Virus record (IMG/VR): IMGVR_UViG_3300023296_001674
Length of the DNA: 64,000 nucleotides
DNA from: a virus
Strand: one strand, 5' to 3'
How positions within the stretch are numbered: the stretch's first letter is position 1; each line of letters begins with the position of its first letter. Shown one piece after another: positions 16,692 through 61,761 of this stretch. Position numbers and translations under genes: made by a program. The notes below the pieces were generated by a model. The model ran no database searches. It saw only the letters and a list, made by a program, of their open reading frames with translations, and was not told where the DNA came from.

Positions 16692-16707
16692 CAATTAAAG
16701 GTGATTG

Positions 16708-18123: not shown

Positions 18124-18169
18124 TCCAACAATTGAGGATTAATATTATGCAGGTGAATGACACAATATA

Positions 18170-38564: not shown

Positions 38565-38570
38565 ATATCT

Positions 38571-39416
38571 ATGAAAAAATATTATGAAACATTAGAAGTC
38601 GAAAAAACAGCAACCGATGCCGAAATTAAAAAATCGTATCGCAAGTTGGCTATGAAATATCATCCTGATACAAATCCCGATGATGTAACAGCCGAAAATA
38701 ATTTCAAAGAAATAAATGAAGCATATGAGGTTTTATCCGACGAAACGAAAAAATCTAACTATGATACATTTGGCGATCCTGATGGTAGACCTACACCACA
38801 CACTAGCCAGCACGGTTTTGGTGGTGGTTTTCAATCAGCAACAGATTTTAATGATATTTTCAATGATATTATGAATGCACGAAGTGCACCAAAAAATGCT
38901 CATGCACAATCACAAATGACTATTACATTGGAAGAGGCGTATGTAGGATCATCAGTTGAGATAGAAATAACTAATCATAAAAATATATCATCAAAGCAAA
39001 ATATAAGAATTCCCGCTGGTATTAAACATGGTATGACGTTACGCCTTGCGGGTGCCGGTCATCATCACATTGAGGAGTTGCCACCCGGTGATTTATTGGT
39101 TAATATACAAATCACACCACATTCCATATTTACTGTGGTAGATTACAATTTAATCATGGAAGAAAAAATTAGCATGATCGAAGCCGTGTTTGGCAAGGAA
39201 ATAGAAGTTACTACATTGGCTGGAAAAACTTTGAAATTAGAAATTCCAAAAGGAACGCAACCAAATCATAAAATTCGATTAAAAGGTAAAGGAATGCCCG
39301 TATTAAACAGAAAAGATGTATTTGGTGATTTATATATAATTGTCAATGTTGAAATACCTACGAATATAACACAAAAACAACGAGATTTATTAAGTGAATT
39401 TAATGAAGTTTCTTGA
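38571..39416 (+). CDS. dnaJ: DnaJ/CbpA-like J-domain co-chaperone (no zinc-finger domain)
   Basis: J domain YYETLEVEKTATDAEIKKSYRKLAMKYHPD. G/F region GFGGGF. C-terminal beta domains. No CxxCxGxG repeats. Confidence 0.85.
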   Translation: MKKYYETLEVEKTATDAEIKKSYRKLAMKYHPDTNPDDVTAENNFKEINEAYEVLSDETKKSNYDTFGDPDGRPTPHTSQHGFGGGFQSATDFNDIFNDIMNARSAPKNAHAQSQMTITLEEAYVGSSVEIEITNHKNISSKQNIRIPAGIKHGMTLRLAGAGHHHIEELPPGDLLVNIQITPHSIFTVVDYNLIMEEKISMIEAVFGKEIEVTTLAGKTLKLEIPKGTQPNHKIRLKGKGMPVLNRKDVFGDLYIIVNVEIPTNITQKQRDLLSEFNEVS

Positions 39417-39441
39417 CAAAATATAAGTGTTAAGTTATAGT
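39413..39441 (+). promoter_or_regulatory. sigma70-type promoter candidate
   Basis: TTGACA (39413-39418, overlapping the dnaJ stop), 17 nt, TATAGT (39436-39441). 33 nt before the ATG at 39474. Confidence 0.5.
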
Positions 39442-39473
39442 TAGTTAATAGTTAATAGCACATAGGATGAAAT

Positions 39474-40004
39474 ATGATAGAAATTGTTTTAGAAGATGAT
39501 CCAGCATTAAAAATTGTTGTGCCACTATATGATTTTGACGAGCCGTTGAATATTGTAACTACACAAGATGAATTCGGTTTAACTGAATTCATTGATGCTA
39601 TGTTTGTGACCATGAAATTGAATAAAGGTCTCGGTTTGGCGGCTAATCAAATAGGACAAAACGTTCGCGTATTTGTTATGGATTTTTACGGCGAAGAATT
39701 TATTTGTATCAATCCAATAATTGAACAGTCATCAACAGAATTTACAATAGATCAAGAAGGCTGTTTAAGTTTTCCAGATTTATCATTAAATGTAAAACGA
39801 TCATCTGAAATATTTGTATCGTATTCAAATATCGATGGCGTTGAAATTCAAAGATGGTTATCTGGTATTACAGCTAGGTGTTTTCAACATGAACTAGATC
39901 ATTTGAATGGGATAACATTCGATTCACAAGTTGCAAAGCTAAGTTTAAAAATGGCTAAAGACAAAAGAAGAAAAAAAATAAAACAAAAACAAAGGAATAC
40001 CTAA
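39474..40004 (+). CDS. def: Peptide deformylase
   Basis: Motif 1 GLGLAANQIG, motif 2 EGCLSFP, motif 3 QHELDHLNG. Confidence 0.9.
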   Translation: MIEIVLEDDPALKIVVPLYDFDEPLNIVTTQDEFGLTEFIDAMFVTMKLNKGLGLAANQIGQNVRVFVMDFYGEEFICINPIIEQSSTEFTIDQEGCLSFPDLSLNVKRSSEIFVSYSNIDGVEIQRWLSGITARCFQHELDHLNGITFDSQVAKLSLKMAKDKRRKKIKQKQRNT

Positions 40005-42263
40005 ATGCCTAACGGATTTGACCAACGACACATTTCTATAATGCTTCAAAAAGCAGTAACATTAGCAGAAAAATACGATCACATATATATAACATTAGAA
40101 CATATCAGTTTAGTATTACTGGATGATAAGTCCGTTGATCACGGTATTAAAGAATGCGGCGGCGACATAAAACTTATTAAAGAAATGGTTTTGACTGCAT
40201 TGTTAGATGAAGCAGATATAACTGAAGCAGGAACTGAGCCACAACCAACAAGAGCAGTCATCAATGTTATTCAACGGGCAATCCAGCATTCTGTTGGATC
40301 AGGCCGCAATACAGTTGAACCATTTTATCTTATGGCAAGTTTGTTAATGGAAAAAGATTCCGTTGCTGTATGGGCATTAGCACAACAAAATGTTGATCGT
40401 GTAAGTTTTATTAGAACTATAAATGTTCCACCATCAGGACAAAATAAAGGTGGCCCGATGAATGAACTCGATCCTATAACGGGTCAACCTATGCCACAAC
40501 CTGAAAATGCATTAAGAGATTATTGTGTTAATTTGAATGAAAAGGTAATTGCTGGTGATATTGATCCATTGATAGGTCGCGAAAAAGAAATTGAACGGTC
40601 ACTACAAGTTTTATCTAGACGACGCAAAAACAATCCATTGCTTGTTGGTGAGCCAGGAGTTGGTAAAACCGCTATTGCAGAAGGATTGGCATGGAAAATT
40701 GTTAATGAAACCGTGCCAAATTATATCAAAGATTCTATTGTATATTCGTTGGATATTGGTGCACTTATGGCTGGTGCCAAATTTCGCGGTGATGTCGAAG
40801 AACGATTAAAAGCGGTTCTTGCCGGATTGGAAGAAGTTGGCAAAACCAACAAAACCATATTATTCATTGATGAAATTCATACCATTATTGGTGCGGGTGC
40901 TACATCAGGTGGAAGTATGGATGTTAGTAACCTATTGAAACCCGCACTTGCTGCTGGTTCATTACGTTGCATGGGTTCCACCACATATGCTGAATATAAT
41001 AAGTATTTCGAAAAAGATGCGGCACTTAAGCGTCGTTTCAAAAAAATTGATATTATTGAACCTACTGTTGATGAAACAAAAACTATTATCAAAGGTTTGG
41101 CAAAATATTTTGCTGAGTATCATGAAGTTAAATTCACAAAAGAAGCATTAATGAGTGCAGTTGATTTATCCGTTAAGCATATACACGATAACAAACTTCC
41201 AGATAAAGCGATTGATGTTATTGATGAGGCGGCGGCAGCACAAAGATTATTCGATGGCGAAGATCGCCTTGAAATCATTGATGTTAAACAAATTGAAGAA
41301 ACCGTTGCAAAGATTGCAAGGATTTCTATTGATGCAACATCAAAAACCGACAAAGATAGATTGCGTAACCTTGCAGAAAATCTAACAACACATGTGTTTG
41401 GTCAAGAAGAAGCGATTGATGTTCTAACCAAGGCAGTTAAATTAAGCAAATCTGGATTGCGTGAAGAAAATAAACCGATTGGTAATTTCTTATTCAGTGG
41501 ACCTACAGGCGTAGGTAAAACCGAAGTTGCAAAACGTCTTGCCGATGAACTAGACGTTCCGTTGGTGCGATTTGATATGTCTGAATATATGCAAAAGCAC
41601 GAAGTGTCTAAACTTATTGGATCGCCACCTGGTTATGTTGGTCATGATGATAGTGATGGATTTTTAATTGAAGAAATTGATAAGCATAATTATTGTGTTT
41701 TATTGTTAGATGAAATCGAAAAAGCACACCAAGATATATTCAACGTTCTGTTACAAGTTATGGATAATGCAACACTAACCGGTGGTCGCAATAAAACAGT
41801 GCGCTTTGACAATGTTATAATCATCATGACATCAAATGCTGGTGCATCAGACCTTGCAAAAGAAGTTATGGGATTTGGCAACGAAGAGCGAGTTGGCGAT
41901 GATCTTATAGCCATCGAAAAATTATTTACACCTGAATTTAGAAATCGTTTGGATAAAATCGTTGGATTTAAACCATTACAACAAGAAATAATGAATAAAG
42001 TTGTTGTTAAATTTATAAAACAATTGAAAGTTCAACTTAAAACACAGGATGTTAAACTTACGTTGATGAAGAAAGCCATTGAGTGGCTTGCCGTTAAAGG
42101 ATACAGTTCCAAATATGGAGCACGACCACTTTCGCGTGTAATAGACAATCATATCAAGCAGCCAATATCTGAAGAGTTATTATTTGGTCAACTTGAAAAT
42201 GGTGGTTCAGTTAAAATTGACATCGTTGAAGACGAACTTGAATTCACTTACAAACCAAAATAA
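40005..42263 (+). CDS. clpA: ClpA-type double-AAA+ unfoldase
   Basis: N-domain [67 protein letters not shown]2 [13 protein letters not shown] and [10 protein letters not shown]. About 750 aa without a long ClpB middle domain. MGFG loop in the ClpP-docking position. Confidence 0.9.
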
Positions 42264-42277: not shown

Positions 42278-42463
42278 ATGACAGAAGTATTAAAATCATT
42301 ATATATACAAAGTGAAATATCGCGCATAACTAAACGCATTAAACAATATAATCAAATTTACCATTCGTTAGAAATAAAAGATTTGAATTTAAAACGATTG
42401 ATAACTAATAAACAACGAGAAATAGATATCTTAGATATGATATCAAGAGGAAACAATCAATGA
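42278..42463 (+). CDS. Hypothetical small protein
   Basis: Coupled to the next gene (ATGA overlap). Confidence 0.45.
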   Translation: MTEVLKSLYIQSEISRITKRIKQYNQIYHSLEIKDLNLKRLITNKQREIDILDMISRGNNQ

Positions 42464-42783
42464 CTGAAATAGAAACAAGAGCTACATTATTCGCCGTAAA
42501 ATCTATGTTCCCAGCAGAACACATTGAAACAGCCAATCGATTAGAATGGTGTCAAGAAAACAACATGGAATTTTTTAATGTTAGCATTCGTGGCACCAAA
42601 GTGGGTGATGTATTTTATGACGAACAAGAAATGCAAGAAATTGGCGTTCTTGAATTGCTTGATGCAGATGGTGTCAAAAAAGGCGAGATAAACCTTGAAA
42701 CATTACCACCAATCAACATCGGTATGGGATTTGTGTTTCATGATGAAACAGATGCCGCAGCATTTAAGCTGCAATGGAACTAA
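42460..42783 (+). CDS. AFKLRW-tail family small protein (...DAAAFKLQWN)
   Basis: LEWCQEN plus C-terminal DAAAFKLQW. Confidence 0.65.
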   Translation: MTEIETRATLFAVKSMFPAEHIETANRLEWCQENNMEFFNVSIRGTKVGDVFYDEQEMQEIGVLELLDADGVKKGEINLETLPPINIGMGFVFHDETDAAAFKLQWN

Positions 42784-42977
42784 TAAAAGTATCAGTTGGC
42801 AGTGATACAAATTTAGTTGATAATTCTATAATATGGTGCAAAGAAAATAATATAAACTTTGAAAAATATGAACCAATTCATAAATCTAATAAATTTGATC
42901 GTGATATAATCGTTGGTTTTATTTTTTATTTTTTAGCAGAAGAGGACGCGTTTGCATTTAAACTGCGATGGGTTTAA
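42774..42977 (+). CDS. AFKLRW-tail family small protein (...DAFAFKLRWV)
   Basis: IIWCKEN plus C-terminal AFKLRW. Its ATG is embedded in the CAATGG (Q-W) codons of the upstream tail (10-nt overlap). Confidence 0.65.
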   Translation: MELIKVSVGSDTNLVDNSIIWCKENNINFEKYEPIHKSNKFDRDIIVGFIFYFLAEEDAFAFKLRWV

Positions 42978-43043: not shown

Positions 43044-43823
43044 ATGAAATTTACATTTCTAGGTGCAGGTAGCGCATTTACGATGGAAAACTATCAATCT
43101 AATATGATAGTGACATCAGATTCTGGAAAAAATTTATTAATTGATTGCGGTGGCGATGTGCGCCATAGTATGAAAGCGGCAGGATTTGGCGTAGCCGATA
43201 TTGATGCGATATATGTCAGTCATCTACATTCAGATCACACTTCTGGAATCGAATGGTTGGCGTTTAATACATATTTTAATGATGCCTTAAAACAACCAAA
43301 AATGTTTATCAATGAAAAACTTTCACGTGAACTTTGGGAAAATACACTACAAGGTGGACTTGGAAGCATACAAGGAAAAATAACCACCCTTGATTCATAT
43401 TTTGAAGTTACTCGTGTTATAAAAAACAAATGTTTCATTTGGGAGGATATTGAATTTAGACTCGTTCAAGTGATTCATTATATGGATGGATTTGACATTG
43501 TTCCATCATATGGTTTGTTGTTTACAGTGAATGGATTGAGATATTTCTTAACTACTGATGCTCAACATGCTCCTTCGCAAATTCAAGATTTTTACAACAT
43601 GAGTGATGTTATCTTTCAAGATTGTGAAACTACCCCGTTTGCATCCGGTGTTCATGCGCACTATGAAGAACTTATAACACTTAATGAAGAAACAAAAGCC
43701 AAAATGATACTATATCATTATTCAGATGGCGACAAGAAAGATTGCACCAACGATGGATTTAGATGTTGGGCAACAAATCAAATGGAAATTGATTTAAATA
43801 CAGGAACGGTAATTAACGCATGA
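43044..43823 (+). CDS. Metallo-beta-lactamase-fold hydrolase (RNase Z/PhnP-like)
   Basis: LLIDCGG, then the HxHxDH motif SHLHSDHTSG, then a later TTDAQH. Confidence 0.75.
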   Translation: MKFTFLGAGSAFTMENYQSNMIVTSDSGKNLLIDCGGDVRHSMKAAGFGVADIDAIYVSHLHSDHTSGIEWLAFNTYFNDALKQPKMFINEKLSRELWENTLQGGLGSIQGKITTLDSYFEVTRVIKNKCFIWEDIEFRLVQVIHYMDGFDIVPSYGLLFTVNGLRYFLTTDAQHAPSQIQDFYNMSDVIFQDCETTPFASGVHAHYEELITLNEETKAKMILYHYSDGDKKDCTNDGFRCWATNQMEIDLNTGTVINA

Positions 43824-46066: not shown

Positions 46067-46291
46067 TTAGCCCCAGCGTAGCTTAAAAGCCATCGCTGAT
46101 TCAAGATTAAAAAATAAAACACCAGTGGAACACATGCATGCACCACTGGTGTATCCATCTAAAATAAAATCTTCTTTTACTTTTAGATTTTCAAATAACC
46201 AATTATCTATAAATTTTTCAGATATCACTGTATCATATTCAAAATATAAATCACTTGTTCTTCTTATTTTATAAAATTCTTCTACAGCCAT
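46067..46291 (-). CDS. AFKLRW-tail family small protein (...SAMAFKLRWG)
   Basis: NWLFEN plus tail. Its ATG is embedded in the AGATGG (R-W) codons of the upstream member. Confidence 0.65.
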   Translation of the reverse strand: MAVEEFYKIRRTSDLYFEYDTVISEKFIDNWLFENLKVKEDFILDGYTSGACMCSTGVLFFNLESAMAFKLRWG

Positions 46292-46488
46292 CTCATTTTG
46301 AATCCCATTGAATCTTCTTCATCTAACAACCAGACCACCGATGATGGTGGTTTTCGGACATCGGCAGAATCACATATGGCATAACTGTCTTCATCGATAT
46401 TGTCGATCAGCCATAGTTTAACTTCATCCATTTCGTTGTTGGAAATATAGAATTTTGTGTTGTTTATTTGACGTATTTTCATATCCAT
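46282..46488 (-). CDS. AFKLRW-tail family small protein (...[10 protein letters not shown])
   Basis: KLWLIDN plus tail. 10-nt overlaps on both sides. Confidence 0.65.
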
Positions 46489-46847
46489 CGTAATTTAAAT
46501 GCAACCACGTCGCTTTCATTATTGAATACAAATTTATACGTTAAATTATTTCGTTTGTCTTCAGTATAAGACCGGACGTAATATTCTTCAACGTTTTCTT
46601 TGAGCCACTCATTCATGTTATTTACCGTGACTTCATCATAGTTTTGCAACAACGCATAATATGATTGCTGTTCAACAATTTCAAATGATGGCTCCAATGA
46701 TTTAGACTGAACTGTGTGTATCGTTTCACTGCATATATCAACGCATTCATTGCAAATATATACATCTACACTAGCAATTAAATGTTTTACTTGCGATTGA
46801 TCTTTTTTACAAAATGAACATGTAGGTACTTTATTTTTTATAGCCAT
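46479..46847 (-). CDS. ClpX-type C4 zinc-finger fused to an AFKLRW-tail domain
   Basis: [34 protein letters not shown] versus E. coli ClpX [34 protein letters not shown] (recalled). C-terminal NEWLKEN...[10 protein letters not shown]. Confidence 0.75.
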
Positions 46848-47188
46848 TTTAATTTAAACGCTGTAACGTCTTCCTTGCATGTAAAGGTGAATTCAACGGT
46901 ATTAGTGCCGTTGATCGAATAATTGGTTTTGTTTTCAAATATGTATACTATATCATTATCCACGCACCAATCATCTATTAAATCAACGCCGTCTGCAATC
47001 ATGGCTGAATATACGTCATACGTTACAATAAATTTATACTTAAAAAATTTTTCTACTTGAGAATGAAAGCCAACTATATCATTTAATAACGTAATATTTG
47101 TTGGATTGTTTATTTTTTTAGTATCGACATCAAAATCTTGTAATATTTCAAATAATACTGCTTTGCGTAATGTATCTATATCATTCAT
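46838..47188 (-). CDS. AFKLRW-tail family small protein (...[10 protein letters not shown])
   Basis: DDWCVDN plus tail. Confidence 0.65.
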
Positions 47189-49371: not shown

Positions 49372-50673
49372 ATGACACATATATCGTTATATAATAGCAT
49401 GTCGAGAGAAAAAGAAAAATTCAAACCAATAGACGATTCTCGCGTAACTATGTATTATTGCGGTATCACCCCTTATGATAAACCACATCTTGGTAACGTA
49501 AGAGCGAGTATCACTGGTGATATGATATATAGACTGTTGCGGGTTTTTTATAAATCAGAAAATGTCATATATGCTAGAAATATTACTGACATAGATGATA
49601 AAATCGAAGCAAAAAGCCAAGAAACAGGAAGGTCTGCGATTGATATAACGAATGAAACTATTCAATGGTTTCATGAAACTATGAAAGTATTACATGTATT
49701 GCCACCGGATTTGGAGCCAAGGGTTTCTGATAATGAAGAATCTATGATGGATATGATTAACATATTACTTGATAAAAATATCGCATATAAATCAAATAAT
49801 GGTGACATTTATTTTGAATTAGATAAATTTCCAGAACACGGAAAATTATGCCGCCACAGTCGCGAAGATTTAAATATAAATGAAGAACATTCTTCAGAAA
49901 AAAAACATCCACAAGATTTTGTTTTATGGAAAGAAAATCATCAACGATTTGGTTGGCATATTGAATGTTCCGCGATGATTAAAAAGCATTTGGGTGACAC
50001 TATCGATATTCATGGTGGTGGTGGTGATTTACGTTTCCCACATCATGAGAATGAAATAGCTCAAAGTGAAACTGCTAATGGTGTCCCATTGGCTAATTAC
50101 TGGATGCATAACGGTATGATTACAGTGAACGGAAAGAAAATGGCTAAATCTACTGGAAGCTTTATTACAGTCGATGAAGCACTAGATCGTGTTCCCGGCG
50201 AAGCGATACGATTTTACATGCTTAAGACGCATTACCGTAAACCGTTTGATTGGTCGTGGGATGGTTTGATGGAAGCCAAGTCTGAACTTGATGGGTTATA
50301 TAGAAAGATGCAGAAACGCACTTATGTTAAAATGGGTGGCGTGTCAGTACAAGTATTATATGCGTTGGCTGATGATTTGAATACACCATTGGTGATATCA
50401 GAATTATACAAAGAAGCGGATAAGGAAATATCTTCTTTATTGGATTCGGCGCAGCTATTGGGTATACTGAATCATACACCAGAAGAATGGTTTCATGGCA
50501 CAACGAAAGATTCATTACTTGATGCATCGTCAATCGAGGCACTTATTGAAGTACGGAAACTATTGAAAGAAAATGGCGACTATGAATCTGCGGATATAAC
50601 AAGAGATATATTATTAGGACAAGGCATTATACTTGAAGATAAACCAGATGGGACAACTTGGCGAAAAATATGA
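49372..50673 (+). CDS. cysS: Cysteinyl-tRNA synthetase
   Basis: MYYCGITPYDKPHLGNVRA (HIGH-type), GWHIECSAM, HGGGGDLRFPHHENEIAQSE, KMAKSTGS (KMSKS). Confidence 0.9.
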   Translation: MTHISLYNSMSREKEKFKPIDDSRVTMYYCGITPYDKPHLGNVRASITGDMIYRLLRVFYKSENVIYARNITDIDDKIEAKSQETGRSAIDITNETIQWFHETMKVLHVLPPDLEPRVSDNEESMMDMINILLDKNIAYKSNNGDIYFELDKFPEHGKLCRHSREDLNINEEHSSEKKHPQDFVLWKENHQRFGWHIECSAMIKKHLGDTIDIHGGGGDLRFPHHENEIAQSETANGVPLANYWMHNGMITVNGKKMAKSTGSFITVDEALDRVPGEAIRFYMLKTHYRKPFDWSWDGLMEAKSELDGLYRKMQKRTYVKMGGVSVQVLYALADDLNTPLVISELYKEADKEISSLLDSAQLLGILNHTPEEWFHGTTKDSLLDASSIEALIEVRKLLKENGDYESADITRDILLGQGIILEDKPDGTTWRKI

Positions 50674-50921
50674 TTATAACACAACAAACTAATAGTCTAG
50701 ATGAGTGTAGATATGTATGTTTGGACGACAATCAAAATCTTACAGAATTAATGGATTTACTATATTGGCTGTCTGAAAATTGTTATAGAGTGCCAGGATT
50801 GGAATGGGTGTTTAGACGATTGGATCGATATAATCAAATAATTATCACATTTGGTTTTAATTCATTAAGTGATTGTTATAATGATGAATATCATATGGCA
50901 TTCAAGTTAAAATGGTTGTAG
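50670..50921 (+). CDS. AFKLRW-tail family small protein (...YHMAFKLKWL)
   Basis: ATGA overlap with the cysS stop. LLYWLSENC plus tail. Confidence 0.65.
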   Translation: MIITQQTNSLDECRYVCLDDNQNLTELMDLLYWLSENCYRVPGLEWVFRRLDRYNQIIITFGFNSLSDCYNDEYHMAFKLKWL

Positions 50922-51005: not shown

Positions 51006-52060
51006 ATGTTATATAATGACGATTGTTTAGTCGCAATGAAAAAATTAATTGAAGAAAATACACAAGTGGATTCTATTGTAACCGATCCGCCATATCATCT
51101 AACCAACACAAATGATGAAAATAAAGGTTTCATGGGTAAACAATGGGATGGTGGCGATATTGCGTTTAATGTTGAAACATGGAAACTCGCATACGATCTT
51201 TTAAAACATGGTGGTCATTTAATAGCGTTTAGTGCATCAAGAACATATCATCATATGGTGGTAGCCATTGAAAATGCGGGATTTGAAATACGTGATCAAC
51301 TTATGTGGCTTTATAGTTCAGGTTTTCCTAAAGGACATAATATATCTAAAGGATTAGAAAAAACCGGTGCAACACCTGTTGACATTGAAACATGGGAGGG
51401 ATGGAATACGGTGTTAAAGCCAGCACATGAACCAATAGTTTTAGCCAGAAAGCCATTAGAACCTGACTCGACTATTGCGCAAAACGTGTTGAAACATGAC
51501 ACAGGTGGTTTGAATATAGCCGACTGTAGCGTGGGCGATGAAAAAAGATTCAATCCAAGTGCAAGTAGCAATAAAATTTATGGTCAATTTGAAGGATCAG
51601 AAAAAGATGGTAGAGATTCTACAGGTAGATATCCAACAAACGTAATTCATGATGGATCAGATGATGTCAATGACGCTTTTCAAAAATATGCCCAATCGGG
51701 TGAAAATCCTATTCGTTTTTTTATGGGTCTAAAACATCTGAAACTGAACGCAATCATGGATCAGCAAATATTAAAAATACACACCCAACTGTTAAACCAC
51801 AAGATTTGATGCGTTATTTATGTCGTCTTATTACGCCTAAAAATGGAATAGTGTTTGATCCATTTATGGGTTCTGGATCAACCGGAATAGCTGCTAAAAC
51901 TGAGGGTTTTGATTTTATTGGCATTGAACGCGAATTAGAATATTTTGAAATATCTAAAAAACGAATAGAAACTGCATATCATGTTCCTAACAAAAAAGTA
52001 GTGTTGTCTACAGACAACAATGATTCTGTGCCAGACCTTGATGATATATTCAAAGAATAA
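51006..52060 (+). pseudogene. Beta-class DNA methyltransferase interrupted by a frameshift at a T7 run (pseudogene, sequencing error, or slippage-dependent)
   Basis: ORF 51006..51809 carries motif IV VTDPPYH. ORF 51806..52060 carries motif I FDPFMGSGST. Frame 2 is open from 51706 and reads ...FFYGSKTSSETERNHGSANIKNTHPTVKPQDLMRYL. The frames meet at TTTTTTT (51716-51722), and one extra T would give a single ~351-aa ORF. Confidence 0.75.
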
Positions 52061-53333: not shown

Positions 53334-53936
53334 ATGCAGTTTCCATTCATCAAATCAAATGTAACATTGGGGCTATTCATGAAAAATGAATATGTCAAAG
53401 TGAAATCACGATATACCAAATTATATGAACTTGCGAGACATTATTGGTTTGAATTGGTTTGTTTATCTATTTTAATGATGGTTATTATATCAAGTATGGA
53501 TAAAACATATACGCCAGTGGTTATAACACCAGTAGGTGTGGAAACAACATCAAACACTATCGCCGTTCAACCATCAAATACATACATTGATTTAAATTCA
53601 ATTGTGCGATATAAATCGACGATGATGGACAATGAAACTGTTGGTGATATAGAACGGCACGATCTTATTAATGCGCATGAAAACAAGTTTGTTGGTCAAC
53701 GTATAATTCACACTGGCAAACTTGATATAATAGATACAAAATATGATCATTATGCATTATATATATCAACCGCCAGTATATATGATGACGCGAAGTGTAA
53801 AATTGATATAGATGATAAAAAAATAATATATACACTACGCGAGGACGCAATTGTAACTATAAAAGGGTCAATTGAAGAAATCACGTTCAATTATAATATT
53901 GCAGATTGCGTTGTTGTGATGCCTGATGAAAAATAA
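53334..53936 (+). CDS. Single-pass membrane protein
   Basis: First ATG after the basic ORF. TM WFELVCLSILMMVIISSM. Confidence 0.5.
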   Translation: MQFPFIKSNVTLGLFMKNEYVKVKSRYTKLYELARHYWFELVCLSILMMVIISSMDKTYTPVVITPVGVETTSNTIAVQPSNTYIDLNSIVRYKSTMMDNETVGDIERHDLINAHENKFVGQRIIHTGKLDIIDTKYDHYALYISTASIYDDAKCKIDIDDKKIIYTLREDAIVTIKGSIEEITFNYNIADCVVVMPDEK

Positions 53937-54190
53937 TGAGTGATGAAAAATCTATATTTCATGACGTTGAAGAATCCAACACCGACGTGGGAATTGAGTA
54001 TACACTTTGGGGAAGTTATGATATAATCATCGAAGTTATGAATTGGCTACATGAACATTATCCATCGACGTGGGGAATTGAATGGACTGTCGATCATCAT
54101 AATAGACACGACGCGATAAACGTTGTATTCAATTTAAAAGAATGCAATACTGATGCAGCACTTATGGGGTTTAAATTGAGATGGTTGTAA
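53936..54190 (+). CDS. AFKLRW-tail family small protein (...ALMGFKLRWL)
   Basis: VMNWLHEHY plus tail. TAATG overlap upstream. Confidence 0.65.
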   Translation: MSDEKSIFHDVEESNTDVGIEYTLWGSYDIIIEVMNWLHEHYPSTWGIEWTVDHHNRHDAINVVFNLKECNTDAALMGFKLRWL

Positions 54191-54570
54191 AAAATTTTAT
54201 AGCATTGCCACACGATCCGTATTTTTCTAATGTAGTAATAACTAATAGAGAGCCGGATAAAATGAGAGTGTATATACAACATAAAGGAGCAACGCCGTAT
54301 AATAATCAATCACATACAACATTATCTATATTGGCTACATCTGTTTATGTAATAGAATTAAACACCATGCCAATAGCAAAATATGTTTTTATAATGTTGT
54401 ATCATTCAGATGTCATATTGATAAAAAATTTTGTTAAACAAAACAACCTTGCTTGTTCGTTTTCAACGGGAAAAATTATAAAGGATCGAAATAATAATAA
54501 AAAGACTGGTTATCTATGTTCTACTAATGATGAAACCGCCGCAATGGCTATTAAAATGATGTGGAGTTGA
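54181..54570 (+). CDS. AFKLRW-family-like protein (tail ...AAMAIKMMWS)
   Basis: Its ATG is embedded in the AGATGG of the upstream tail (10-nt overlap). Degenerate tail. Confidence 0.5.
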   Translation: MVVKNFIALPHDPYFSNVVITNREPDKMRVYIQHKGATPYNNQSHTTLSILATSVYVIELNTMPIAKYVFIMLYHSDVILIKNFVKQNNLACSFSTGKIIKDRNNNKKTGYLCSTNDETAAMAIKMMWS

Positions 54571-54573
54571 ATA

Positions 54574-54849
54574 ATGAAAATTAACTGCGTGGAAAAAATG
54601 GATCATAAACCGGCATATGAAACTGTTGATGTTTGTAATGACGGAATACAGGTACATATAATAAAACAGTGCCCGGCAAAATATACATGTTTGTTTCCTA
54701 CTAGAAATGAGGCAATTATTTTTATTCGTGAATTGAAAAAAATACCAAGTATTGATTATCAACAGTATCATTTGGGTGATAGAAATCTATTGGAAGTTAA
54801 TATTCATTCGAAAGACGCATTATTTTTGTTTTCATTGAGATGGTTATAA
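54574..54849 (+). CDS. LRW-tail subfamily protein, tandem copy 1 (...ALFLFSLRWL)
   Basis: About 91 aa. Collinear with the next two ORFs (..HKP.....). Confidence 0.6.
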   Translation: MKINCVEKMDHKPAYETVDVCNDGIQVHIIKQCPAKYTCLFPTRNEAIIFIRELKKIPSIDYQQYHLGDRNLLEVNIHSKDALFLFSLRWL

Positions 54850-54850: not shown

Positions 54851-55129
54851 ATGTCAATACATATAGAATGCGTAAATCGAATGATTGAACGACCTGTATT
54901 CGTAGACATCGAAACTGTTGGTGGTAGAGGTGTTATAATACAAGACCAGCATGATTCGATACCAGCAGAATTTAATATATTTTCAGATACGAATAAAGAG
55001 TTGCATAAAATAATGAATGAAATATCACGTATGCATGGTGTAACAATTACAGATACTCGTGATCTCTGGGCAACTATTAATGTTAATACAAAAGAATCAT
55101 TGCTTTTGTTTTCATTGAGGTGGCGGTAA
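54851..55129 (+). CDS. LRW-tail subfamily protein, tandem copy 2 (...SLLLFSLRWR)
   Basis: Shares IPAEFNIF / VPAEFICN and the K(E/D)(S/T/A)LL(L/I)F(S/W)LRW ending with copies 1 and 3. Confidence 0.6.
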   Translation: MSIHIECVNRMIERPVFVDIETVGGRGVIIQDQHDSIPAEFNIFSDTNKELHKIMNEISRMHGVTITDTRDLWATINVNTKESLLLFSLRWR

Positions 55130-55130: not shown

Positions 55131-55412
55131 ATGACGGAATTGTATATACATCAAACTGTGCGGATGCACCATAAGCCATCATTTGAACAATACAACACCT
55201 TGGGTGGTGGTGGTTACATCAATTATACGAATGAGTTTGTACCAGCAGAATTTATTTGCAACGCAGATGATTCTGCAACATTACTTGCGTTTATAGACGA
55301 GTTGAGAATATTACCCGGTCTTCAAGTTGACAGAGAGCATCATCAATCTGAGATTACCGTTAAAATTCATTCAAAAGAAACATTATTAATATTTTGGTTG
55401 AGGTGGATGTGA
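55131..55412 (+). CDS. LRW-tail subfamily protein, tandem copy 3 (...TLLIFWLRWM)
   Basis: Same length class and motifs as copies 1 and 2. Confidence 0.6.
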   Translation: MTELYIHQTVRMHHKPSFEQYNTLGGGGYINYTNEFVPAEFICNADDSATLLAFIDELRILPGLQVDREHHQSEITVKIHSKETLLIFWLRWM

Positions 55413-55570
55413 TGTTATATAGATTTAAAGATATGGACGTTAAGCCGGATGAAAACATAAAAGAATGGTGCAATGAAAATTTAACAGACGGTGAAGTAGA
55501 ATTTGGTGCTACTACCATTTACATACAATCGGAGATAGATGCAATGGCGTTTGAATTAAGATGGATTTAA
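55412..55570 (+). CDS. AFKLRW-tail family small protein, 52 aa (...DAMAFELRWI), missed by the 60-aa cutoff
   Basis: TGATG overlap. IKEWCNEN plus DAMAFELRWI. An in-frame GTG at 55403 would recreate the 10-nt overlap. Confidence 0.6.
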   Translation: MLYRFKDMDVKPDENIKEWCNENLTDGEVEFGATTIYIQSEIDAMAFELRWI

Positions 55571-55572
55571 CA

Positions 55573-56295
55573 TTATTTATGTTTACAATTGTCATTATGC
55601 CACCTATTTAATGCTCCATAATTTCGAGTTGATAAATTGCAATGAGGGCATGTTTTATATGGCTGTGATAATTTTGCTTTAGACATTTTATTTTTAGCCG
55701 ATATTGTTTTAGGTTTTCCTTTTGCCGCATTGCTCATTTTTTGTTTAGTTGTTTCGGAGTGTGTTCTTCCGTATTTACCTGTTAATGCCGCGCTAATACA
55801 TTTTTTAGTTTCTTTGCTGAGTTTTTTACCTATATTCGCCAAAAATAATTTTTGTTTGGTTTCTGCTGTATGTTTTTTGCCTACCCCCGCTAAAGATAAT
55901 TTTTGTTTGGTTTCTTCTGATAATTTCTTACCTTTATGAGCATTGCTTATTTTTAATTTAGTTTTTTCAGTATGTTTGTATCCACTTTTACAATAAAATT
56001 TATTGTCGCCGTTGTGTTGATTTAGATAATTTGTATTATTGGCTGCGTCAATTTTTGATAAAACTTTGCTTTCCCATAATCTGGCTTTTTTTGGATTATT
56101 TGGAAATTCTTTACGTATTTCATATATAAAATTTTCTAATCCATATTTTTGTATAAGGCTTTCGATAATTGCCGATGAAGTAAAATATGTAGACCACAAA
56201 TCAGATGGGTGGCAGTTTTTAGCATATCTTACCCCATAATAATGTTGGCCCGTTTCTAAAAAAGTTATGCGATATGTATAAGGTATATGATTCAT
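55573..56295 (-). CDS. GIY-YIG homing endonuclease (Seg-like) with NUMOD3 repeats
   Basis: YTYRITFLETGQHYYGVRY (GIY-YIG). Five repeats of HTEKTKLKISNAHKGKK-type modules. C-terminal CPHC..C Zn motif. Confidence 0.85.
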   Translation of the reverse strand: MNHIPYTYRITFLETGQHYYGVRYAKNCHPSDLWSTYFTSSAIIESLIQKYGLENFIYEIRKEFPNNPKKARLWESKVLSKIDAANNTNYLNQHNGDNKFYCKSGYKHTEKTKLKISNAHKGKKLSEETKQKLSLAGVGKKHTAETKQKLFLANIGKKLSKETKKCISAALTGKYGRTHSETTKQKMSNAAKGKPKTISAKNKMSKAKLSQPYKTCPHCNLSTRNYGALNRWHNDNCKHK

Positions 56296-56425
56296 CTTGA
56301 TTTTCCTTGGCTTTTATGATAGTATAAATAATAAAGTAGTGGGACAGCCCAACTTCCTTGGCGGGTTTTAGTTGTTGAAACCAACTAATTACCACTATAT
56401 CTATTTATTTTTTGGAGTTAAAATC

Positions 56426-57643
56426 ATGAATGACCATCGCGAGATTGCTACAGCTTTAGACTTATTTCATTTTGAGGAGCATTCACCAGGAATGGTATAT
56501 TGGCATCCTGAAGGGTTTAAATTATATCGAACCATAGAAGAATATATGCGAAGCATGCATGAAAAATATGGATATAAAGAAATTAGAACACCAATAATGG
56601 TCAATAAATCTTTATGGAAATTGTCTGGTCATTGGGATAAATTTCAAGACAATATTTTTATTGCTGGTGAAATAGGTGAAGTAATAAGCGATGAGTTAAT
56701 TTATACTGACGGGCAATATGTAATGTCTCCGATGAATTGTCCAAATCATATACAAGTGTACCAAAAGGGAACAAAGTCTTACAAGATGCTACCTGATCGT
56801 TTATTTGAATTTGGTGTGGTGCATCGCAATGAACCATCTGGATCATTGGCTGGCATTATGAGATTGCGAAGTTTTACACAAGATGACTCGCATATACACT
56901 GTACTGAAGATCAAATTTTGAGTGAAACAACCAATTTTATCAATATGCTTCAAGAAGTTTATTCTAAGTTTGGGTTCAATGACGTCGCTGTAAAACTTGC
57001 CACTCGATGTGAAGAACGCATTGGCGACGATGCCAGTTGGGATAAAGCCGAGAAAGCATTAGAAGATGCTTGTATACATCTTGGATTGGAATACACAATT
57101 AATCCCGGTGAATCAGCATTCTATGGCCCAAAACTTGAGTTCACGCTACAAGATAGCCTTGGTCGTGATTGGCAATGTGGAACCATCCAGATTGATTTTA
57201 ACATGTGCGAACGATTGGGTGCTACATACATTGACGAAAATGGTGATAAGAAACATCCGGTATTGATTCACCATGCTGTATTGGGAAGTTTGGAACGCTG
57301 GGTTGGTGTATTGCTTGAGAACAGCAATGGTGAACTACCGTTGTGGCTTGCCCCTACACAAGTGGTTGTTGCCAGTATTACCAGTGATGTTAATGACTAT
57401 GCTGAAGAGAAAATGGTTACACTTAGTGGTATCGGATATCGAGTTGAGTTGGATGACCGAAATGAAAAAATCGGTAAGAAAATCAAAGACGCACAGAAAC
57501 GACGTATTCCATATATGCTTATTGTGGGTAAAAAGGAAAAAGAGAATCAAATGGTCAACGTTCGCAAATTGAACGGCGACCAAGATGATATGGAGTTGAT
57601 AGATTTTATAGGATCATTCGTCAAATCTACAAATGAAAGGTGA
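56426..57643 (+). CDS. thrS: Threonyl-tRNA synthetase, catalytic + anticodon-binding domains only (no TGS/editing region)
   Basis: Starts MNDHREIATALDLFHF.E.SPGMVYWHPEG, the segment that opens the ThrRS catalytic core. HRNEPSG, FTQDDSHIHC, class II motifs. C-terminal anticodon-binding domain. TGGAG RBS 8 nt before ATG 56426. Confidence 0.85.
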   Translation: MNDHREIATALDLFHFEEHSPGMVYWHPEGFKLYRTIEEYMRSMHEKYGYKEIRTPIMVNKSLWKLSGHWDKFQDNIFIAGEIGEVISDELIYTDGQYVMSPMNCPNHIQVYQKGTKSYKMLPDRLFEFGVVHRNEPSGSLAGIMRLRSFTQDDSHIHCTEDQILSETTNFINMLQEVYSKFGFNDVAVKLATRCEERIGDDASWDKAEKALEDACIHLGLEYTINPGESAFYGPKLEFTLQDSLGRDWQCGTIQIDFNMCERLGATYIDENGDKKHPVLIHHAVLGSLERWVGVLLENSNGELPLWLAPTQVVVASITSDVNDYAEEKMVTLSGIGYRVELDDRNEKIGKKIKDAQKRRIPYMLIVGKKEKENQMVNVRKLNGDQDDMELIDFIGSFVKSTNER

Positions 57644-57836
57644 ACGTGTTTTTGATAAAATGAAACTCCCATATCCATGTTACGTTAATTATGGCGTTGA
57701 CCCAGATATGGTAATCGAATGGTGTGATGAGAATATCGAGTGTAAATGGGGGTATTTTCATCAAAATAACGGAACTCTTTATATATACATTACAGATGAT
57801 GTATATGGAATTGCATATAAGTTAAAATGGTCTTGA
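57633..57836 (+). CDS. AFKLRW-tail family small protein (...YGIAYKLKWS)
   Basis: VIEWCDEN plus tail. Overlaps the thrS end by 11 nt (alternative ATG at 57660). Confidence 0.6.
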   Translation: MKGERVFDKMKLPYPCYVNYGVDPDMVIEWCDENIECKWGYFHQNNGTLYIYITDDVYGIAYKLKWS

Positions 57837-57859
57837 CTGTTTTTATTTCTGTGTTAATA
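57832..57859 (+). promoter_or_regulatory. sigma70-type promoter candidate (extended -10)
   Basis: TTGACT (57832-57837), 16 nt, TGtTAATAT (57851-57859). 29 nt before the ATG at 57888. Confidence 0.5.
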
Positions 57860-57887
57860 TACGTATGAATATTAATGGAGAAGTAAA

Positions 57888-58193
57888 ATGGGCATGTTTG
57901 ATTGGGTTAAAAGTGAATATTCGCTGCCACAAATGCAACCACCAACCGATGAGTTTCAAACCAAAGACGCTTTCTGCAATCTTGATGTATACACATTAGA
58001 TAAAGATGGCATACTGTGGGTTGAATATCAAGATTGGAGCATGAATGATCTTGGTGATAAAAAACTATCACATTTTGATGGCGAAATGTATTTCTATGGG
58101 TCTACCAAAGCTACAGGGCGCATGCAAGAATACTTAGCAGTATTCATTGATGGGACACTTGAAACAGTAGAGAAAGTTAATTATGGGCCGTAA
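57888..58193 (+). CDS. Hypothetical protein
   Basis: TGGAGAAG RBS. Confidence 0.55.
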   Translation: MGMFDWVKSEYSLPQMQPPTDEFQTKDAFCNLDVYTLDKDGILWVEYQDWSMNDLGDKKLSHFDGEMYFYGSTKATGRMQEYLAVFIDGTLETVEKVNYGP

Positions 58194-59337
58194 ATCAAGA
58201 CAGCGCGAAGAAGAAATGTTGGCTGGTGAACAAAAAATCACCAACCGCTTGAGTTCGCATACGTCACAAACAAAGAAAAAATTTGGCGCACTTGGATGGC
58301 AGGAAGTTATATTCAAAGCGATTGCTGAAAATCATAAACATTGGATCAATGCACCATCAACGTGGGTGAACACCAAAAAAACTAAAAATATAGACGCGTT
58401 GCGCCACGACATGGTTCGTTATGTATTCGGTGTATACAAGTGTCCCAAATTTCTTGAAGACGTTTGGCTCCCAACCCATCGCGAAACATATAATTATGCT
58501 AATCATAGACGGCATGAATCAGATGAAATTGAGAATAAAGATGTTCATTATGTTGCATGGTATCTAACTGTCGCACAGGGCGGATCGTTATATAAGTCCA
58601 ACACCAAAGGTATACTGACCAAAAAAGAAACACATGCATTTTTACATGCACCCAAGAATAACACAGTCAAACAAAATATTTGGTGGGCACGTGCTTATTG
58701 CGAGAGTGATAACATTGGAACAGCAACAAGAATTGCTCAATCCAGACTTGTAAATCGCTCGATGTCTAATGAATTTTGGATTTCGGTGATGAGATTCTTT
58801 TCAAAATATCCAACCAGCGTCAATGAAATAAATGATTTGTTGGATTATTTTATATACGCATTACAAGAAAACGAGGATTACACACTTAAAGGTCGTTCAT
58901 TGGAAGCGGTAAAAATTAGTTGCGTGGAATGGCATAGATTTCTTAACAAACAAAAATCTATTGGTGGTGGAACGTGGGCTGGAAGTGCCGTTGATAACGG
59001 AAGTTATACCACAGGAAAAGATGAACATAAAGTCAAGTGGTTGATAACACAAATCAGAACAGGCAATGAATTACTCAAAGAAGGGCAGAAAATGCGCCAT
59101 TGTGTTGTTTCATACAAACGACGATGCTCAGAAGGGCATTGTTCTATTTGGTCACTAACTTCACATGATATGATTGGTAATAACAAACGCTGTTTAACAG
59201 TCGAGTTATCTAGTAACAATCAAATCATTCAGTGTCGTGGATTGGCGAATCGTATGCCGAGACCAATTGAAAATAATATCCTTGGACGATGGTGTGTTGA
59301 TAATAGTCTTCAGGCCAATCGTAATTCAAGATGGTAA
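58183..59337 (+). CDS. PcfJ-like protein
   Basis: C-terminal EGQKMRHCVVSYKRRCSEGHCSIWSL.....KRCLTVEL..NNQIIQCRGLANR matches the PcfJ-like domain pattern (recalled). Confidence 0.55.
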   Translation: MGRKSRQREEEMLAGEQKITNRLSSHTSQTKKKFGALGWQEVIFKAIAENHKHWINAPSTWVNTKKTKNIDALRHDMVRYVFGVYKCPKFLEDVWLPTHRETYNYANHRRHESDEIENKDVHYVAWYLTVAQGGSLYKSNTKGILTKKETHAFLHAPKNNTVKQNIWWARAYCESDNIGTATRIAQSRLVNRSMSNEFWISVMRFFSKYPTSVNEINDLLDYFIYALQENEDYTLKGRSLEAVKISCVEWHRFLNKQKSIGGGTWAGSAVDNGSYTTGKDEHKVKWLITQIRTGNELLKEGQKMRHCVVSYKRRCSEGHCSIWSLTSHDMIGNNKRCLTVELSSNNQIIQCRGLANRMPRPIENNILGRWCVDNSLQANRNSRW

Positions 59338-59753: not shown

Positions 59754-60173
59754 ATGAGCGACACAGATGAAATAAGAACACCAGTAGAAAATATTGATGC
59801 AATTCTTGATGTCGACAATTATTTTAATTTGCAAGAAAAAATTCACAATTATTTTGGATATGTTGAAGATTGGAAAGTGATGGCATTGGTCGATCATCGA
59901 TCTGATTATTGGATATTACACGAAATTAAAAATGATGACGGTGAAACATATGGCGGCGAAGTTTTTTATCACGATGATCCATTTATAGATGGATATAAAA
60001 CCGAAGGAAATTACTACAGCGCAGTTCTTTATATGCAACGATTTCTTCCACAGTGGATATATCGTACAAAAGATTTTACCATGATTTGTATGGACACGCA
60101 ATGCGACGATAACAAATATATTGGTATATTTTCTAATATGAATGAACAACCAAATATAGTTCCATACGTATGA
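59754..60173 (+). CDS. Hypothetical protein
   Basis: ATG 59754 lies 9 nt after GGAG. The listed 59550 start overlaps the upstream gene by 200 nt. Confidence 0.5.
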   Translation: MSDTDEIRTPVENIDAILDVDNYFNLQEKIHNYFGYVEDWKVMALVDHRSDYWILHEIKNDDGETYGGEVFYHDDPFIDGYKTEGNYYSAVLYMQRFLPQWIYRTKDFTMICMDTQCDDNKYIGIFSNMNEQPNIVPYV

Positions 60174-60445
60174 TAATACGTTATTCAGACTCTTCAAAAT
60201 TTTGGAGATATTTAACATTATTTATATTGCCAAAACATAAAGCACGTGTATATAATGCAACAGATGAGGAAATAAACGAGTTAAAAAAATGGCTGAGTGA
60301 TCAAAAAATATGGTTTTTTAGTAATAAAATAGATTACTACTCTGCTAAAAATGCGGATCATGCAAAATCATCCAAACCATTGATAACAATACATATTAGA
60401 GATGAAGAAGTATTGATGGGTATGAAATTGGCATGGGAAAATTAA
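60170..60445 (+). CDS. AFKLRW-family-like small protein (tail ...VLMGMKLAWEN)
   Basis: ELKKWLSDQKIWFF plus MGMKLAW. ATGA overlap. Confidence 0.5.
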   Translation: MIIRYSDSSKFWRYLTLFILPKHKARVYNATDEEINELKKWLSDQKIWFFSNKIDYYSAKNADHAKSSKPLITIHIRDEEVLMGMKLAWEN

Positions 60446-60763: not shown

Positions 60764-61063
60764 TTGAACGGTTCATATGAAATGCAGTGGGTGGGATGGG
60801 ATAACTCAAAAAACCATGATAAAGTATGGGGTTGGTTTATCATGAAAAACGGCAAAGCTTGGTGTTTTTGGGGTGCAAGAGGTAAAAAATTAAAATTTAA
60901 AATACATCCATCACATGATTCTGCTGAAAAGGTTATGGAACAAAAAGAAAAAGCAAAATATAAGTTTGTTCCACCGTCGAAGTATGATACACTGGTTAAA
61001 GATTTCCTCGACGACGTTGAAGTATGGTGTATGACCGCAATAATAGAAGAAAAGGTAATGTAA
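60764..61063 (+). CDS. WGR-domain-like protein, tandem copy 2 (TTG start)
   Basis: GGGAG lies 6 nt before TTG 60764. N-terminus is collinear with copy 1 (MNGSYEMQWVGW versus MSNMYTIQWMGF). CFWGARGKKLKFK. Confidence 0.5.
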   Translation: MNGSYEMQWVGWDNSKNHDKVWGWFIMKNGKAWCFWGARGKKLKFKIHPSHDSAEKVMEQKEKAKYKFVPPSKYDTLVKDFLDDVEVWCMTAIIEEKVM

Positions 61064-61761
61064 TGAAAATATTATTAGTAAGGCACGGACAATCCGAAGC
61101 TAATGCAAATAAAGATTTGCATTATACAATGGCGGATCATGCCATACCATTATCAGAGTTGGGTGTAAAGCAAGCACGCGAAGCCGGTAAATTTTTAGGA
61201 ACTTATTTAGATAACATTGTTGGTATTCCTGCGGTCAAACCACTTATAAGATTATGGTTAAGCCCATATGAAAGAACTCGCAGAACCGCAAGTAATATAA
61301 TGATGGGCATCAATGACACCGCCAAGAGCGGCAAACATTCAACTTTTAAAATGGATAAACGCGAAAGCATCCGATTGTGTGAACAGCAGTTTGGATTGTT
61401 TGATGGTATACCCGACGATGAACGCCACATTAAATATCCTGATGAGGCAGATCATTATCAAAAATGCGAAGATCAAAATGGTCATTTTTGGGCACGGATG
61501 CCTCTTGGTGAAAGTCGATTCGATGTAGCAAATCGTGTTCACGAAACATTTGGAACATTTCATCGAGATAATGAAAAACACGGCATTAATACTATTGTTG
61601 TGGTATGTCACGGTGTTACGTTGCGTGCATTTGTGATGGAATGGTTACATCTTACACCCGAATGGTTTAATGATGAACCCAATCCTGGTAATTGTGATAT
61701 TCGATTGATTGAAAACAACAAGGATGAAGGTTATATTCACAGAGGTAAAATAGATGAGTGA
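61063..61761 (+). CDS. Histidine phosphatase (phosphoglycerate-mutase superfamily)
   Basis: MKILLVRHGQSEAN (RHG motif), SPYERTRRTA, VVCHGVTLRAF. TAATG overlap start at 61063. Confidence 0.85.
   Translation: MKILLVRHGQSEANANKDLHYTMADHAIPLSELGVKQAREAGKFLGTYLDNIVGIPAVKPLIRLWLSPYERTRRTASNIMMGINDTAKSGKHSTFKMDKRESIRLCEQQFGLFDGIPDDERHIKYPDEADHYQKCEDQNGHFWARMPLGESRFDVANRVHETFGTFHRDNEKHGINTIVVVCHGVTLRAFVMEWLHLTPEWFNDEPNPGNCDIRLIENNKDEGYIHRGKIDE

Follow-up and report, generated by a model that had tools for sequence, protein, structure and literature searches.

A phage-encoded threonyl-tRNA synthetase apparently reduced to its catalytic core and anticodon-binding domain

Why would a phage encode a threonyl-tRNA synthetase (ThrRS) that seems to have no proofreading region? 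ThrRS is the textbook case of zinc-based amino acid discrimination backed by an essential cis-editing domain. The question is raised by a thrS gene in a 64,000-nucleotide stretch of viral DNA, IMG/VR record IMGVR_UViG_3300023296_001674 (the whole stretch is called the window below). A first-pass annotation of the letters alone had described a minimal enzyme that begins at the catalytic core and lacks the N-terminal domains. The analysis below asks whether that description is right, whether the short gene is an inherited state or a broken one, and how such an enzyme might serve a phage.

The shortened enzyme

The gene and the elements that define it are the following.
56426..57643, plus strand: thrS (deltaN form), a 405-aa ThrRS (TIGR00418, Pfam, phmmer, and a predicted model compared with 1evk)
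56711..57322, plus strand: class II catalytic domain, tRNA-synt_2b, aa 96-299 (Pfam, E=5e-44)
57359..57613, plus strand: HGTP anticodon-binding domain, aa 312-396 (PF03129, E=4e-19)
56414..56417, plus strand: Shine-Dalgarno-like GGAG with an 8-nt spacer to the ATG (sequence reading)
56296..56425, no strand assigned: 130-nt intergenic leader between a divergent endonuclease gene and thrS (no recognised RNA element)

The open reading frame (ORF) runs from the ATG at 56426 to a stop codon ending at 57643, and its product begins MNDHREIATALDLFHFEE. The start and the ribosome-binding site that had been proposed agree with the position of the GGAG and with the length of the ORF. Could the true start lie further upstream? 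The longest ORF in this frame begins at TTG 56372, just 18 codons above the ATG, where an in-frame stop sets the limit. Therefore, an in-frame extension of about 240 residues is impossible. The leader contains no credible ORF, and an Rfam search of it for an operator or a T-box returned zero families, in keeping with its earlier description as non-coding. The RNA fold of the leader is no better than that of shuffled sequences (z = -0.95), and promoter-like matches in the 2.9-kb region 55400-58300 are no more frequent than in shuffles.

The canonical bacterial architecture is N1/TGS, N2 editing, catalytic and anticodon-binding domain, and the ThrRS of the window does not conform to it. Pfam recognises the two domains listed above and nothing further; neither TGS (PF02824) nor tRNA_SAD (PF07973, the N2 editing domain with its HxxxH and CxxxH motifs) is found in the protein by Pfam. 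Against TIGR00418, the NCBIfam equivalog model for thrS, the protein scores 489.8 bits (curated cutoff 383.65) and covers model positions 171-559 of 565. In phmmer alignments residues 1-3 pair with residue 242 of E. coli ThrRS (1qf6) and the match continues through 242-621 and beyond, while in 1evk and 8wij, truncated constructs made for crystallisation, the start pairs with residue 1-2. The E-values against solved ThrRS structures range from 1e-123 to 1e-134 and therefore mark a likeness far beyond chance. Set against the bacterial domain architecture, the protein is equivalent to E. coli residues 242-642, with the N-terminal half lacking. The first-pass annotation had placed its start at the DHR...LDLF segment and had it run on through the anticodon domain, and on this Pfam, TIGR00418 and the 1qf6/1evk alignment concur; the reported absence of an N-terminal region of about 240 aa is likewise borne out by the missing Pfam domains and by the entry into TIGR00418 at position 171. 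This supports the view, at the level of sequence, that the window protein is a ThrRS cut to its catalytic core and anticodon-binding domain, with the TGS/editing region of about 240 aa absent.

The roles of the zinc ligands and of the Thr- and ATP-binding residues of ThrRS are known from established structural work. By alignment the zinc ligands C105 (codon 56738-56740), H156 and H282 correspond to E. coli C334, H385 and H511, the motif-2 residue R134 to R363, and the Thr-binding residues D154, Y233 and K236 to D383, Y462 and K465. These residues are invariant or nearly so in 18 truncated homologues. The anticodon-contact positions are also conserved: N346, K348, E371 and R380 have their counterparts in E. 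coli N575, K577, E600 and R609, which in the 1qf6 structure read G35/U36.

An AlphaFold (AF2) model of the protein is of moderate confidence (predicted local distance difference test, pLDDT, 76; predicted template modelling score, pTM, 0.77), with low values at aa 82-151. This part includes an 11-residue insertion at about aa 83-100 (the EIGEVISDELIYTDG region, window ~56672-56725), where the pLDDT falls below 50. In a Foldseek comparison the model matches truncated E. coli ThrRS (1evk) with template modelling (TM) scores of 0.90/0.91 at 45-46% identity. The corresponding values are 0.87/0.84 at ~32% identity for the yeast mitochondrial enzyme MST1, and 0.77 at 26% identity for Aeropyrum pernix ThrRS-1 (3a31).

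Relatives and spread among huge phages

The window is part of an AT-rich huge-phage genome of about 570 kb. Six contigs from independent assemblies carry the identical ThrRS protein; one of them is a metagenomic contig of 570,549 bp (ENA ERZ27315719 k141_202852). GC content in the window is 31-38% and nearly all genes share one strand. A megablast of the region against deposited phages gave no near-identical DNA.

Is the truncation peculiar to this genome? The 14 closest database proteins are 56-74% identical to the window ThrRS. Together with two slightly more distant ones (16 proteins spanning 53-74%) they are all 391-407 aa long and begin 1-13 residues before the shared DHR...LDLFH motif. 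The next-best matches are full-length bacterial ThrRS of 634-665 aa that possess TGS and tRNA_SAD and are 52-56% identical. When the catalytic and anticodon part is used for a neighbour-joining tree, the 16 group in a clade without any full-length sequence on a stem of length 0.117. The deep branches of this tree are only 0.005-0.03 long and its bacterial sampling is narrow, which leaves one truncation event and many inseparable. One 412-aa protein (P0091), at a distance of 0.13 from full-length bacterial ThrRS, was left out of the phage forms and is probably miscalled or fragmentary. The ratio of nonsynonymous to synonymous substitution (dN/dS) between the window thrS and a 72%-identical relative is 0.09-0.15, with dS saturated. 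The same N-terminal boundary is found in 34 other truncated homologues.

A short gene of this kind might also be a remnant or an artefact, either a pseudogene that lost its 5' part when a homing endonuclease gene inserted or the product of misassembly. What speaks for this is a homing-endonuclease-like gene directly upstream on the opposite strand.
55573..56295, minus strand: homing-endonuclease-like gene, 240 aa, GIY-YIG-like N-terminus and four NUMOD3 repeats (Pfam)
The GIY-YIG endonuclease reported earlier at this place is thus recovered as a NUMOD3/GIY-YIG-like gene, its SegE-type GIY-YIG match lying under the cutoff (20.6 vs 25 bits). However, the 72%-identical relative, which has the same order of ClpB, zf-ClpX, CysRS, ThrRS, PcfJ, His_Phos_1, Thg1 and DUF3307, carries a truncated gene without the endonuclease. 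The endonuclease gene is for this reason incidental rather than the cause of the truncation, and it is not part of ThrRS function. On that side the relative has a MetRS core gene instead. In the syntenic relatives L001 and L002, which lack the endonuclease, this gene (502 aa) is found some 520 bp upstream of thrS, and a single 55-aa ORF separates the two. A split of thrS by the endonuclease was rejected on these grounds, since relatives without the endonuclease keep the same start and have the MetRS gene upstream. The other evidence against a remnant is equally direct: six independent assemblies yield the identical protein, the frame is intact and preceded by a ribosome-binding site, dN/dS is about 0.1, and the boundary is repeated in the 34 homologues. 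The idea is effectively refuted. Instead, the truncated architecture, which the related phages of this clade have in common, appears to be inherited and selected and not the result of damage to the gene.

The MetRS core gene of L001/L002 (7974-9482) covers positions 4-508 of the 648 in PRK12267, so that the C-terminal tRNA-binding domain is missing. Its place is taken in the window by an array of small ORFs and the endonuclease gene.

How widespread is the short form? IMG/VR was scanned with two catalytic-domain peptide patterns that are blind to the N-terminus, and this returned 65 loci. With a single exception, described below, the ThrRS genes that lie inside viral contigs are truncated, and at the same boundary; there are 18 of these, 13 of them on contigs of 114-608 kb, with GC contents of 27-62%. 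Where the start can be located it falls 1-15 residues before the DHR motif; L068 is too divergent. By contrast, about 46 full-length genes lie 1-108 nt from the ends of prophage contigs of 13-66 kb. These were rejected as phage genes and are host thrS, and four of the six top tblastn "phage" matches (Vibrio and Acinetobacter records) were set aside likewise as host thrS-infC-rpmI-rplT operons at prophage borders. The single internal full-length ThrRS in the scan is a 641-aa protein on a 44-kb contig of 30-32% GC (L065/L098, IMGVR_UViG_3300036770_007878). Its editing motifs look degenerate, with RYTLTSQ for RHxxAH and CYGPS for CRGPH, and this gene could represent a second route to an editing-deficient ThrRS.

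Outside IMG/VR, the published 636-kb phage LR756504.1 carries a 386-aa truncated gene whose product starts MEDHRIIG. When 1.84 billion cluster representatives (50% identity) were searched, about 16 of the best 150 matches were truncated proteins of 396-430 aa, and the two of these whose gene contexts were read sit in ORFan-rich, phage-like surroundings. The truncated form is not universal, because the cultured 469-kb phage Phosso and some small IMG/VR contigs have ThrRS genes with N2 domains. Judged by these sequences, it is predominant in huge phages. The genomes of huge phages can hold genes for as many as 15 aminoacyl-tRNA synthetases (PMC7162821), and no description of ThrRS truncation as a regularity among them was found in the literature searched. 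The regularity thus appears to be undescribed so far.

A further link is with tRNA-Thr genes. In LR756504 (L008) and in L040, tRNA-Thr(GGU) ends 1 nt before the thrS ATG and tRNA-Thr(UGU) lies 100 nt downstream. Three tRNA-Thr genes (9642-9951) are found within 360 nt upstream of the truncated thrS in L071, one lies about 470 nt upstream in L054, and two are located within 6-7.5 kb in both L062 and L063. Of the contextual evidence, this proximity speaks most strongly for the view that the truncated proteins act as genuine ThrRS. The phage tRNA-Thr examined have NGU anticodons and G1-C72 acceptor stems, mostly with C2-G71 as well. The idea that unusual acceptor stems accompany the truncated enzyme was rejected, the stems being mostly canonical. 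In LR756504.1 the two genes occupy 5929-6000 and 7261-7348 of L008; at 88 nt, the downstream tRNA-Thr(UGU) gene may well contain an insertion or have a larger variable region.

A putative function and its rivals

What, then, might the enzyme do? The probable answer is that it is an active, phage-encoded ThrRS of bacterial type that lacks post-transfer editing and adds to Thr-tRNA charging during infection, with Ser-tRNA-Thr either cleared by the host or tolerated. In this proposal a bacterial-type ThrRS would have lost the whole N-terminal module (N1/TGS and N2 editing). The remaining polypeptide would form the usual class II dimer, activate threonine on the active-site zinc and recognise tRNA-Thr mainly via the anticodon-binding domain. 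During infection it would charge host tRNA-Thr, and probably phage tRNA-Thr too. It would thereby supply extra Thr-tRNA capacity beside the CysRS, SmpB, peptide deformylase, DnaJ, ClpB and Thg1 of the phage. Experiments on other ThrRS are relevant here. Deletion of the editing domain from a bacterial ThrRS leaves dimerization and activation fully intact (PMC4267643). The bacterial N2 domain hydrolyses Ser-tRNA-Thr, since the zinc cannot exclude serine, and ThrRS without N1/N2 has zero editing activity (PMC4787780). Without N2, therefore, the phage ThrRS would be expected not to hydrolyse Ser-tRNA-Thr. Fidelity could then depend on zinc discrimination plus whatever pre-transfer hydrolysis the core has, or on trans-deacylation by the full-length ThrRS of the host; or else the phage, with its short lytic cycle, might simply tolerate a degree of Thr-to-Ser replacement.

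Perhaps, though, the editing activity has not been lost but resides in another protein. In Sulfolobus and Aeropyrum a catalytic ThrRS works with a separate editing protein (PMC4267643, PMC4787780), and a split enzyme of this crenarchaeal kind, with a free-standing phage-encoded editing protein elsewhere in the genome, would fit the short gene; the structure of A. pernix ThrRS-1 matches the model at TM 0.77. The search for a partner in this genome took in the window and flanks, about 84 kb of the ~570 kb, which leaves a split enzyme some room. A hidden Markov model (HMM) built from 95 ThrRS N-termini recovered every full-length gene in the fetched loci. In six frames and at E<=10, it found no match in the window, L001-L004 or L008 (L004 overlaps the window and reaches ~7.4 kb past its end), nor in the 10 kb that flank the gene on each side in 17 IMG/VR phages. 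Among the window ORFs that reach 70 aa, Pfam scans of the longest non-overlapping ones detected zero tRNA_SAD, YbaK, DTD or TGS domains. For this purpose 63 remaining ORFs were joined into two pseudo-proteins, with the exclusion of five small-tail ORFs and some spurious ones. An IMG/VR scan with ThrRS N-terminal patterns returned 37 loci, 0 of which are on contigs bearing a truncated ThrRS; these patterns detect ThrRS-type N2 motifs only, and divergent editing factors would escape them. No adjacent ORF that encodes an editing domain was thus found by HMM in the window or L004, or by Pfam in the window ORFs scanned, and we give the split enzyme only a slim chance. The first-pass annotation had reasoned that an editing-less ThrRS would need a trans-editing factor or would have to tolerate serine. 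Its premise, that the editing region is absent, stands. A factor of the phage's own, however, is not strictly needed, because the host of a huge phage supplies full-length ThrRS in the infected cell.

Several observations do not sit easily with an active, editing-less charging enzyme. Deletion of the N domain lowers the efficiency of tRNA charging (PMC4267643). There is no tRNA-Thr gene in the 64-kb window, and the search for an editing factor was limited to ~84 kb of the ~570-kb genome, which leaves room for a free-standing one. The 11-residue insertion is confined to the ThrRS of the window (P0001) and is missing in the 72-74% relatives. The neighbour of zinc ligand H282 is His283 (codon 57272-57274; E. 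coli R512), which is fixed as His in 16/16 clade members; in the ThrRS used for comparison, 126 full-length and 16 other truncated ones, this residue is Arg without exception. The clade (P0001-P0014, P0042, P0102) is also fixed for D300N and N333S (E. coli numbering) in the catalytic domain, and one member, P0008, has Tyr where the zinc-binding Cys is expected.

The substitutions R512H, D300N and N333S might be taken to hint at a role outside bulk charging, such as a tRNA-Thr- or mRNA-binding regulator, a decoy, or an inhibitor-insensitive spare ThrRS. Truncated synthetase paralogues with new roles are indeed known (PMC4787780, PMC9437257). Nevertheless, the catalytic, zinc, ATP and anticodon residues that were checked are conserved, the score is above the thrS equivalog cutoff, and the neighbours are phage replication and translation genes rather than a biosynthetic cluster of the kind that surrounds a resistance ThrRS. 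Such a role is very improbable. What if the loss of the N-terminal module actually benefits the phage? Host factors or inhibitors whose action goes by way of N1/N2 might be evaded, or translational autoregulation of the ThrRS type; the loss might loosen the acceptor-stem demands on phage tRNA-Thr, or serve a deliberate statistical mistranslation of Thr as Ser. Huge phages with GC contents of 27-62% share the boundary, and it recurs in no fewer than ~16 different clusters at 50% identity. Several phages show a close linkage between the truncated gene and tRNA-Thr genes of their own, and the MetRS of a relative is likewise core-only (positions 4-508 of a 648-position model). However, the present data do not distinguish a benefit from mere tolerance or genome economy, the acceptor stems of phage tRNA-Thr are ordinary (G1-C72, mostly C2-G71), Phosso keeps a full-length enzyme with intact editing motifs, and deep branches of 0.005-0.03 leave single and repeated truncation unseparated. 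A selected loss with such a purpose is improbable as well. A broader version is somewhat less doubtful, although still unlikely. It holds that huge phages are marked by an editing-less ThrRS, which they retain for the advantage that N1/N2 loss brings, and that the genes belong to old lineages specific to phages and were not taken from hosts repeatedly in recent times. If this were true, the enzyme together with phage tRNA-Thr would constitute a Thr-charging route beyond the reach of host control or inhibitors; alternatively, Thr/Ser fidelity in phage proteins would be deliberately loosened.

An active charging enzyme without editing, which we favour over these alternatives, has consequences of its own. 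Huge phages would routinely run part of translation without proofreading, or lean on the host for it, and the truncated ThrRS makes the fidelity of viral translation directly testable. The genes also amount to a natural collection of minimal ThrRS, in some cases with the cognate phage tRNA, that could serve work on fidelity, N2-free tRNA recognition and possible orthogonal pairs. Moreover, an automated label of "threonyl-tRNA synthetase" conceals a domain loss that is functionally relevant.

Genome context and comparison with known systems

Two further features of the window bear on the setting of thrS.
57633..57836, plus strand: 67-aa ORF, C-terminus AYKLKWS, 11-nt overlap with the thrS stop (ORF list; no Pfam match)
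49372..50673, plus strand: complete CysRS, 433 aa (TIGR00435, 385.8 bits, cutoff 340, model positions 2-465 of 466)
The 67-aa ORF is the gene with an AFKLRW-like tail that had been noted to overlap the stop of thrS, and it has no counterpart downstream of thrS in L001 or L002. Small ORFs of 52-129 aa with a C-terminal tail of this type (e.g., AYKLKWS) directly before the stop codon make up a large family, of which it is a member. In the window 14 were found by regular expression and two by eye, and only the Trp is invariant in their alignment. They lie at 11523-11786, 11791-12039, 42460-42783, ~42780-42977, 46067-46291(-), 46479-46847(-), 46838-47188(-), 50658-50921, 53936-54190, 54181-54570, 54574-54849, 54851-55129, 55131-55412, 55394-55570, 57633-57836 and 60170-60445. 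Six of them form a tandem array immediately upstream of the endonuclease gene. Among those scanned, Pfam recognises nothing save a ClpX-type zinc finger in 46479-46847(-).

The CysRS shares the translation-related gene neighbourhood of thrS. Elsewhere the window encodes a T4-type clamp loader, a DNA polymerase exonuclease subunit, several homing endonucleases, topoisomerase II subunits, PhoH, DnaJ, peptide deformylase, a ClpB-like ATPase, an Apyc1-like protein, DNA methylases, SmpB, MazG and a Macro domain protein. Its two tRNAs are tRNA-Leu(UAA) and tRNA-Arg(UCU). SmpB (PF01668, E=7e-52) is encoded at 26640-27083 (+); ARAGORN and Rfam found no tmRNA gene in the window. A proteostasis and translation cluster at 38553-42263 (+) and 43044-43823 (+) comprises DnaJ, peptide deformylase and a ClpB-like double AAA+ ATPase. 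Behind it comes a metallo-beta-lactamase protein, whose match to the anti-Pycsar Apyc1 family is graded sub-threshold, with a score of 93 bits and E=3e-26 (cutoff given as 50). Downstream of thrS, genes for a Thg1-family (tRNA-His guanylyltransferase-like) protein, His_Phos_1 and DUF3307 (L004 16805-17719, just past the window end; window 61024-61761) stand in the same order as in the 72%-identical relative.

The adjacent ORFs 24254-24646 and 24643-25161 (+) encode a FliG middle domain (E=1e-14) and FliM (E=3e-20), flagellar switch domains that are unexpected in a phage. An N6/N4 DNA methylase is split into 51006-51809 and 51806-52060 (+), of 267 and 84 aa, with PF01555 in both halves; L004, an independent contig, shows the split as well. 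At 15991-16338 and 16705-17169 (+) are genes for a cREC_REC (cyclic-phosphate processing receiver) domain protein and the Macro domain protein, and a second GIY-YIG (LEM-3-like) endonuclease gene lies at 17102-18193 (-).

How does the phage enzyme compare with known forms of ThrRS? The nearest likeness is E. coli deltaN-ThrRS (242-642; 1evk/1evl/1fyf/1kog), which has the same two domains and boundaries within 1-2 residues. However, that protein is a laboratory deletion, whereas the phage form is a natural gene maintained by selection, with an 11-residue insertion at ~aa 83-100 and clade-specific changes at D300, N333 and R512. Among phage enzymes, the ThrRS of Sinorhizobium phage Phosso is likewise of bacterial type and is 46.6% identical over the catalytic and anticodon part. 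It differs in being a 640-aa protein with TGS and N2 and intact HxxxH/CxxxH motifs; the window gene has neither domain. The self-resistance ThrRS of borrelidin and obafluorin producers differ in context, in that no biosynthetic enzymes are found among the window neighbours, which are phage replication, translation and ORFan genes.

To our knowledge, the earlier examples of natural ThrRS without an editing domain come from yeast mitochondria and from certain Crenarchaeota. The yeast enzyme MST1 co-evolved with an unusual tRNA-Thr1, and nothing comparable to this pairing has been seen here. It has the same minimal architecture as the phage protein (TM 0.87/0.84), but the two are only ~32% identical, as against 52-56% between the phage enzyme and full-length proteobacterial ThrRS. 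Because the phage enzyme is so much closer to the latter, its loss of the editing domain is independent of that in MST1. MST1 is active but error-prone and defective in post-transfer editing; it has pre-transfer editing only, and Ser-tRNA-Thr accumulates in vitro (PMC4267643). The crenarchaeal ThrRS-cat (Sulfolobus, and Aeropyrum ThrRS-1, 3a31) also lacks the editing domain in its catalytic polypeptide. It is of archaeal type, however (26% identity, TM 0.77), and has a separate ThrRS-ed partner, the like of which was not found in the ~84 kb searched here. By descent, as far as sequence comparison indicates, the phage protein is a bacterial (proteobacterial-type) ThrRS and kin of neither. Given these precedents an editing-less ThrRS is not mechanistically surprising; what the huge phages add to them is a natural, selected enzyme of bacterial type that recurs from one phage to the next.

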